IMG/VR virus record: IMGVR_UViG_2875722834_000006
DNA length: 42,851 bases
From: a virus
Taxonomy: Duplodnaviria; Heunggongvirae; Uroviricota; Caudoviricetes
Direction: 5' to 3' (one strand)
Made by a program: the position numbers and the translations under genes. Under the pieces are notes generated by a model, which worked only from the letters and a program-made list of their open reading frames with translations, made no database searches and had not been told where the DNA came from. Below are positions 15,426 to 16,420 of this stretch, piece after piece. Numbering within the stretch: the stretch's first letter is position 1; each line of letters opens with the position of its first letter.

Positions 15426-15830
15426 TCAGGAGGTGGTTACAGGTGCCTGGTCACTGTCTTTCAGGAAGATAGCCAGCGGTCGGAGCGCTTTTTTCAGGTC
15501 AGCGGTCGTCCAGGAGTTATCAAAAATAATTCGGTGCTGGTTGAATTCCCCCATCAGATACAGGCCGCCGTTCTGATCGGAAGACGATGCATCAACATCA
15601 TCAACCAGAATAGCAACGGGTAACTGACTGCCATCTTCAGCCGTTTTCACACATTGCGTGTATTTCCCGCTGGCAGCCACCAGGCCCAGGACAGTACCAC
15701 GCTTAAAGGCACCGCCCGTAATGATCCCGGTGTCAGTCACCAGCTGGAGCGTGCCAGCGACAAGCTGATCCGGAACAAACAGCGCGCTCTTCATGCCAGG
15801 CGCAAACGCATTCTGACCAAACTGATCCAT
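15426..15830 (-). CDS. Head decoration protein (gpD-like position)
   Basis: 134-aa ORF between scaffold-like and capsid genes. Confidence 0.55.
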   Translation of the reverse strand: MDQFGQNAFAPGMKSALFVPDQLVAGTLQLVTDTGIITGGAFKRGTVLGLVAASGKYTQCVKTAEDGSQLPVAILVDDVDASSSDQNGGLYLMGEFNQHRIIFDNSWTTADLKKALRPLAIFLKDSDQAPVTTS

Positions 15831-16420
15831 TATTTCTCTCCTCTTGTGGAGTTGTAGAGGCCGGTCATTTTACTTACCAGCGCAGACTTTCCGGTCTCTT
15901 TCTGTCCGCTATCCGGATTAAGCCGGACCTGGTGGCTTTCCTGCATACGCTGATCGAGAGAGCGTTTACGGGATGGCTGAGATGCGGCTGCGGCCGGAGC
16001 CGAAGAGGCTAGGACATTAATTGCTGCCGCAGAACTCATCCCGGTATTGAAAGCCAGTGACGCGGCCAGTGAAGGATTCGCAGCTGCATGCTTACTGCCG
16101 AAAATACGGGCGCAGCGTTTACGCTCAGCAGCGCGTGCATTTTTTACCGCCTTACTCTCTTTGCGATCGTCGTCGCCGTCGTCTTCAGAATCATCATCTT
16201 CTGACGCATCCGGATCATCGCCGTCATCTTCAGCATCATCGTCGCGTTCGTCTTCTTCCGCGTCGTCGTCGCGCTCATCATCATCGGCATCATCTTCGCG
16301 CTCGTCCTCTTCCGCGCGACGGGCTTTCGCTTTTTTGGCTTTTTTATCCTCTTCTTCCTCAGAAGCGGAAGGGCCAAGACCAATGAGGTGAGCAAAACTA
16401 AACGTCTTTTTCTTTGCCAT
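15830..16420 (-). CDS. Scaffold-like protein (lambda Nu3 analogue) with long acidic D/E repeat region
   Basis: ATG at 16420 with AGGAG RBS right after protease stop; C-terminal segment (ERKRCARIFG...AAA) resembles Nu3; N-terminal half is poly-acidic repeats. Confidence 0.5.
   Translation of the reverse strand: MAKKKTFSFAHLIGLGPSASEEEEDKKAKKAKARRAEEDEREDDADDDERDDDAEEDERDDDAEDDGDDPDASEDDDSEDDGDDDRKESKAVKNARAAERKRCARIFGSKHAAANPSLAASLAFNTGMSSAAAINVLASSAPAAAASQPSRKRSLDQRMQESHQVRLNPDSGQKETGKSALVSKMTGLYNSTRGEK
16150..16330. repeat. Imperfect tandem repeats (about 27 bp, GTCGTC/ATCATC rich) encoding DDDAEEDER-like units
   Basis: Visible reiteration of cgtcgtcgcgctc...tcttccgcg blocks. Confidence 0.6.

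Follow-up and report, generated by a model that had tools for sequence, protein, structure and literature searches.

A 591-nt gene of an Escherichia coli prophage probably codes for the protein that scaffolds the procapsid (capsid assembly protein) in a lambda-type head module, as a counterpart of lambda Nu3 that occupies a gene of its own. The gene lies on the minus strand, at 15830-16420, of the virus record IMGVR_UViG_2875722834_000006 (Caudoviricetes), whose whole analysed stretch of 42,851 nt is referred to here as the window. The assignment is made because of the position of the gene, the homology of the C-terminal domain of its product, the finding of no other scaffold candidate in the head module, and the splitting off of the neighbouring protease. 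The correspondence to Nu3 would be one of function, and of homology in part only: from sequence comparison we conclude that the C-terminal domain and that of Nu3 and gpC are homologous, and that the N-terminal half has no such homology. New here is a candidate Nu3-type scaffold that is encoded as a separate gene and that carries a conserved N-terminal motif (FAHL) and a charged linker predicted to be disordered. The gene and the parts of its product are as follows (pLDDT, predicted local distance difference test score).

15830-16420, minus strand: candidate stand-alone gene for a Nu3-type scaffold, complete, 196 codons plus TAA, ATG at 16420-16418
16427-16431, minus strand: AGGAG ribosome-binding site, read from the sequence, with a 6-nt spacer to the ATG, just upstream of the protease stop
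16373-16402, minus strand: conserved N-terminal motif FSFAHLIGLG (aa 7-16)
16313-16363, minus strand: SEEEED patch and Lys/Arg-rich block KKAKKAKARRA (aa 20-36)
16166-16312, minus strand: acidic tract (aa 37-85, 49 aa), predicted disordered
16222-16312, no strand assigned: degenerate 27-bp tandem repeat, 3.4 copies with 76% matches (Tandem Repeats Finder), encoding the 9-aa units of the tract
15833-16165, minus strand: conserved basic C-terminal domain (aa 86-196, net charge +13)
16001-16153, minus strand: predicted three-helix core (aa 90-140) with the motif AERxRCxxIF...LAAxLAFNT, pLDDT 94-98 (AlphaFold2)

A separate gene in the head module

The candidate occupies the slot that Nu3/gpC occupies in lambda, between the S49 protease region on one side and D and E on the other, and its partners (portal, S49 protease, gpD and gpE) are all of lambda type. 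The late genes of the prophage are on the minus strand, with the order TerL, gpW, portal, S49 protease, scaffold candidate, gpD-like, gpE-like. The neighbouring genes are the following.

21259-21828, minus strand: small terminase
19194-21323, minus strand: gpA-type large terminase (TerL)
18922-19185, minus strand: gpW
17285-18922, minus strand: portal
16422-17288, minus strand: S49 head maturation protease, the upstream neighbour, 288 aa (Pfam PF01343, E = 1.6e-27)
15426-15830, minus strand: gpD-like head decoration protein, the downstream neighbour (Pfam PF02924, E = 3.2e-20)
14279-15364, minus strand: open reading frame (ORF) of the gpE-like major capsid protein (Pfam PF03864, E = 2.4e-60), for which the Prokaryotic Genome Annotation Pipeline (PGAP) places the start at 15328

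Phages phiNP and BZS1 keep this gene order. Farther away, the order portal, S49 peptidase (271-288 aa), member of the family described below, HDPD, Phage_cap_E was found in the distant L006, L007 and L009, and the downstream half of it was seen in L005.

The protease aligns by BLASTP to residues 7-283 of lambda gpC (36% identity, E = 2e-60), and its 288 aa therefore stop where the protease domain of gpC ends, without the Nu3 tail. The other 156 residues of gpC are common to Nu3, which is translated in frame from inside lambda gene C, and it is at the position of this shared tail that the scaffold candidate stands as a separate cistron. Whereas Nu3 thus has an internal in-frame start and its whole sequence in common with gpC, the candidate in the window is a separate gene with its own ribosome-binding site. 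Among the head genes surveyed, which did not include the one that follows the capsid gene, no other scaffold candidate was seen. The candidate is packed closely between its neighbours: the protease TGA (16424-16422) ends one base ahead of its ATG, and the last A of its own stop, TAA at 15832-15830, is shared with the ATG of the gpD-like gene (TAATG).

A preliminary description of this stretch had proposed an ORF that starts at ATG 16420 behind an AGGAG site, and both the sequence and the annotation agree: PGAP calls the same 591-nt coding sequence as 'hypothetical protein' WP_001472856.1 in the prophage of E. coli AW1.7. The gene is 100% identical in PGAP-annotated E. coli prophages and is carried by 34 of 5426 complete E. 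coli genomes, with at least 99% identity in 30 of the 34. A search of phage genomes for near-identical DNA gave zero matches. Ahead of the true ATG the scaffold frame continues without a stop for another 28 codons (16421-16504, minus strand), overlapping the last part of the protease gene, and ORF callers can therefore give a 224-aa product from ATG 16504.

Alternative ORFs cover the gene, two on the plus strand (16047-16391 and 16057-16386) and one out of frame on the sense strand (16144-16395, minus), and the products of such opposite-strand and off-frame ORFs are poly-Ser or Arg/His-rich. Their best explanation is that GAN-rich repeats lack stops in the alternative frames, and the earlier dismissal of the antisense ORFs as repeat artefacts holds. 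It is the sense frame that is conserved, over hundreds of clusters in fixed synteny.

Fusion of the protease to the scaffold candidate by programmed frameshifting or readthrough was considered and rejected. The sole fused entry (P0002, 306 aa) is an indel artefact, with a frame switch inside the protease coding region, and its source is a single 1.2-kb read-assembled contig. No -1 slippery heptamer was found in the protease/scaffold overlap, and a -1 frameshift would miss the scaffold frame, which is +1 relative to the protease. Among relatives the scaffold gene follows the protease gene at a spacing of 1-49 nt and in frame 0 or +1, and this variation argues against conserved recoding.

Homology to Nu3 and the protein family

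The C-terminal segment had been said to resemble Nu3. Plain BLASTP finds this likeness only marginally (30% identity over 69 residues, colinear, E = 0.06), whereas profile methods bear it out. When a 111-member family alignment was compared with Nu3 by hhalign, residues 89-165 of the query paired with Nu3 109-182 (probability 87.7%, E = 3.4e-6, 74 columns). The full protein matches phrog_6382 almost end to end (E = 3.5e-77, residues 3-196 on profile positions 2-200 of 201), and lambda Nu3 reciprocally matches the same profile (E = 3.8e-4, Nu3 101-192 on profile 86-178). The C-terminal domain alone matches phrog_17040, which is annotated 'head maturation protease' (E = 5.9e-11), and Nu3 matches it at the same positions (E = 1.6e-11). 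In phrog_53 the C-terminal domain falls on positions 343-463 (E = 8.8e-8), downstream of the S49 part, and these overlap the positions matched by Nu3 (233-442).

The two proteins also differ. Lambda lacks the FAHL motif; its linker is mildly acidic and rich in Ser, Thr, Ala and Gln, with a net charge of -3 against -34 in the protein of the window; and the homologous domain is near neutral in lambda and basic here.

AlphaFold2, run with the 111-sequence alignment, predicts the three-helix core listed above, with more helices reaching aa 193, and gives pLDDT values below 50 for aa 20-67; a shallower alignment yielded the same picture with lower confidence. Among BFVD models, the top three Foldseek matches were the 'Prohead protease' of Salmonella phage 37 and two 'Peptidase S49' proteins, and one of the three aligned over 49 columns with a root-mean-square deviation of 0.7 and 35% identity. 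The partial disorder predicted here would be another likeness to Nu3; lambda gpNu3 is said, in the title of a 2011 paper by Medina et al. (cited in PMC11922011), to be intrinsically disordered. In the ERxRC motif of the first C-terminal-domain helix, C103 (16111-16113, minus strand) shows conservation of at least 90% among 111 diverse members, whereas the corresponding residue of lambda Nu3 is Ile.

No Pfam model covers the protein. The only Pfam matches, all sub-threshold and recurring family-wide, were to Nop14, CDC45, BUD22 and TFIIF-alpha, and these were rejected as low-complexity artefacts that reflect the composition of eukaryotic acidic proteins. The NCBIfam search gave nothing meaningful, and no relative was found in the PDB by sequence, by profile or by Foldseek.

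A word-indexed search returned 740 relatives, which are all either unnamed or, if they carry a source name, 'hypothetical'; among their sources are Escherichia, Klebsiella, Citrobacter, Enterobacter, Raoultella, Pectobacterium, Edwardsiella and Salmonella. When the C-terminal domain was used for an exhaustive profile search, 643 clusters at 50% identity came out; the best 150 of these are 60-262 aa each, and hence none of the 150 is fused to a protease. Members share an architecture in which an N-terminal FAHL motif is followed by a blocky, charged, low-complexity linker, with acidic blocks alternating with K-rich ones, and by a helical C-terminal domain with the pattern AERxRCAAIF...LAAxLAFxT. 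An exact FAHL occurs in 100 of 136 full-length representatives, and the conservation of F9, H11 and L12 is 90% or more over the 111 diverse members, for which the mean column identity of the alignment is 22%. A tblastn search of phage genomes matched only phiNP and BZS1; the members there, WOZ57184.1 and phiBZS1_p06, are both annotated as hypothetical proteins and have the same architecture and synteny.

This family has no Pfam or NCBIfam name, is of 'unknown function' in PHROG, and goes as 'hypothetical protein' in all the genome records and source names encountered. It can now be given a probable function, as the scaffold of lambda-type heads in which protease and scaffold genes are separate, which is an annotation gain for a very common prophage module in the Enterobacterales and beyond.

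One member, P0248 (L008 4001-4495), has the FAHL motif and the C-terminal domain with almost no acidic tract, and its linker has a net charge of +2. It directly follows an HDPD decoration gene. Helicase and primase genes lie upstream of it, and tail-chaperone, SLT and baseplate genes downstream; genes for portal, S49 protease and Phage_cap_E are all missing from its vicinity, and the element may have been rearranged or reduced.

The acidic tract

By charge, the protein divides into three parts: aa 1-36 (MAKKKTFSFAHLIGLGPSAS-EEEED-KKAKKAKARRA) with a net charge of +5, aa 37-85 with -34, and aa 86-196 with +13. The EEEED patch (aa 21-25) and the Lys/Arg-rich block (aa 26-35) both precede the acidic tract, in which 37 of the 49 residues (76%) are D or E (binomial p ~2e-24 against a 12% background); D and E together number 49 in the whole protein. 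Charges are segregated into blocks more strongly than in shuffled controls (z = 6.2). Because basic segments flank the acidic tract, electrostatic self-association or autoinhibition of the scaffold is plausible on sequence grounds.

The preliminary description had given the tract as about 90 residues of almost pure D/E, encoded by repeats of about 27 bp. It is indeed strongly acidic, but it is about half that long and is 76% D/E; the repeats are present, but they are degenerate and encode only part of the tract. The 9-aa units read EDDADDDER / DDDAEEDER / DDDAEDDGD, and direct repeats with spacings of 12, 15, 27 and 45 nt run across 16167-16316.

The further proposal that the tract is expandable could be followed by comparing copy number among relatives. 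Twelve database proteins whose flanks are 97-100% identical to those in the window have tracts of 13, 31, 34, 38, 45, 46 or 49 aa. The 31-aa allele is short of two 9-aa units (18 aa, 54 bp) and the 13-aa allele of four (36 aa, 108 bp), while the 34-aa allele lacks 15 aa, matching the 45-bp spacing of the direct repeats. Other alleles show amplification of a 7-aa EDDCDDP unit, and Enterobacter lineages have EEEEEETA units. Repeat units are gained and lost as the tract evolves, and what is conserved is its composition, not its sequence or exact length. In the 120 closest relatives its length clusters at 46-50 aa, which suggests weak stabilising selection on length beside a clear tolerance of change.

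In BZS1 p06 a K-rich plus acidic module is duplicated, in place of the 9-aa unit repeats of the protein in the window: the module KEKGKKAKSRRAEE, with its acidic run, is present twice (L004 3210-3809). The linker therefore also grows by whole basic-plus-acidic blocks, and not by 9-aa slippage only.

In the 123 full-length representatives in which both landmarks were found, the median linker length is 92 aa (range 47-147), the D/E fraction 0.39, the K/R fraction 0.20 and the net charge -18 (range -31 to +2); at net -28, the linker in the window is at the acidic end of this range. Of the 150 best-listed among the 643 clusters, 138 contain an acidic window 15 aa or longer. Since the charged linker is present family-wide, the acidic tract is a compositionally conserved family trait and not a lineage-specific insert, and to call it an insert, as the preliminary description did, is misleading; it is a normal feature of a large unnamed family of probable scaffolds.

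Proposed role in head assembly

As a scaffold, the protein would bind capsid, portal or protease subunits through its C-terminal domain, and possibly through the FAHL motif too, and would nucleate assembly of the shell. A disordered linker of about 70 residues with blocks of charge, in which the 49-aa acidic tract is the main element, could keep it soluble and extended while filling the procapsid lumen, and after cleavage by the S49 protease this polyanionic linker would favour exit while DNA enters. For the FAHL motif we propose a role as a docking or cleavage element.

Scaffolds of the P22 gp8 type offer a functional analogy only: they are elongated helical or disordered chaperones with a small basic helical C-terminal module, which in P22 binds coat protein electrostatically. 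The P22 scaffold leaves intact and is recycled, whereas in the window a protease is encoded next door, and the protein has no sequence or fold match to any solved scaffold. Electrostatic contacts between scaffold and capsid have been discussed (PMC11922011). In BZS1 virions, mass spectrometry detected the decoration and capsid proteins (p07-08) and 11 others and did not detect the homologue p06 (PMC7556043), which fits a scaffold that is removed, as a weak indication.

Several points weigh against the scaffold assignment. The same mass spectrometry missed the portal and the protease too, weakening the argument from the absence of p06 (PMC7556043), and the placing of this protein or its relatives in procapsids comes from inference and not from experiment. 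Pairwise similarity to Nu3 is marginal, as given above, and the profile evidence spans only about 75-90 residues; the C-terminal domain has a net charge of +13 here against -2 in lambda, so that the binding partners may differ. Allele P0037 retains only 13 residues of the acidic tract, which means that the tract can be dispensed with, unless the prophage in question is defective, and the tract-less relative P0248 occupies a different gene context.

The protein could instead be a tether that recruits the protease and not the main scaffold, with FAHL docking the protease, the Nu3-like domain binding the shell and a gpC-like unit being made up from two chains. The exact split of the gene at the end of the gpC protease domain suits this idea, as do the near-universal presence of FAHL in stand-alone members, with no such motif seen in lambda gpC, and the shortness of all the partner proteases seen (271-288 aa). 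However, FAHL might just as well mark a cleavage site or bind capsid or portal, and, with no other scaffold candidate among the head genes surveyed (the gene after the capsid gene again left out), a tether would probably be the bulk scaffold too. We regard a tether in place of the main scaffold as unlikely; the tether and scaffold roles are compatible and not exclusive. A separate doubt concerns the acidic repeats, which in a real scaffold might have no function of their own and be slippage-prone low-complexity DNA that is tolerated in a flexible in-frame linker. Although near-identical alleles vary three- to four-fold in tract length (13-49 aa), units differ by lineage (DDERDDDAE, EDDCDDP, EEEEEETA) and the linkers of the family span 47-147 aa, the acidic composition persists over 643 clusters despite the low mean column identity of 22%, with acidic windows of at least 15 aa in nearly all of the 150 best-listed clusters (138). 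Regular alternation of acidic and K-rich blocks, duplication of the whole K-rich plus acidic module in BZS1, charge segregation well above that of shuffled sequences and the clustering of 120 close relatives at 46-50 aa likewise speak for a function, and purely neutral repeats seem to us rather improbable.

The preliminary description had also raised the possibility of a DNA mimic. On this reading the protein, or a fragment of it, would act through the acidic tract as a decoy for host DNA-binding proteins (such as restriction enzymes, nucleoid proteins or defence sensors), and might travel in the head into the infected cell. Support for this is in composition alone (net -34 over 49 residues); acidic tails that are disordered, like those of T7 gp2.5 and SSB, can occupy binding sites in competition with DNA. 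Ocr, ArdA and similar mimics resemble the tract in high negative charge density only, since they are folded, with surface carboxylates that copy the phosphate spacing of B-DNA, whereas the tract is repeat-derived and predicted to be disordered. No match to a known mimic or anti-defence family was found by Pfam, PDB or Foldseek searches. Moreover, the gene is fixed in a head-assembly slot, is translationally coupled to the gpD-like gene and has the tract fused to a Nu3-like domain, and the BZS1 homologue went undetected in virions (PMC7556043). This reading is highly improbable.

For the favoured scaffold reading, a more specific version can be framed that we hold to be doubtful and that would be a scaffold design not described before: FAHL would, with no covalent bond, recruit the tail-less S49 protease or else dock on the capsid interior, and the segregated charge blocks would self-associate through multivalent electrostatic contacts into a core that incoming DNA then disperses. 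If this were true, the family would be a compact model of charge-patterned disordered regions that organise and then vacate the interior of a capsid. Among titles and abstracts, nothing relevant was found on phage scaffolds and phase separation.

Current understanding is not overturned by these results, which describe a real and fairly ordinary finding. As a natural split version of lambda C/Nu3, the gene pair may help to tell which parts target the protease and which scaffold the shell, and the natural alleles with tracts of 13-49 aa could probe the contribution of a polyanionic disordered segment to capsid assembly.

The gene immediately behind the major capsid gene (13897-14307, minus strand), which was left out of the survey of scaffold candidates, has an acidic low-complexity start (…DDLNAEGSAKDG…DDAELSVDDDGGDEKSGDTESQE…) and belongs to phrog_24496 ('unknown function', E = 6.8e-85). 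In the distant relatives L005 and L009 the gene after the capsid gene is an ORF of 116-124 aa. Phage_attach (PF05354) is the first post-capsid gene in L005 and the second in L009, where the first has no match.

The prophage is a mosaic of a lambda-type head module and a Mu-like contractile tail and baseplate (window 1-12800; L002 15434-24591), with genes for DUF2635, sheath, tube, DNA circularization protein and gp46/gp47-like proteins. In the identical prophage of E. coli AW1.7 the Mu-like contractile tail comes after the head genes, and the same combination of lambda-type head and Mu-like tail is common to Citrobacter phage phiNP and Serratia phage BZS1.

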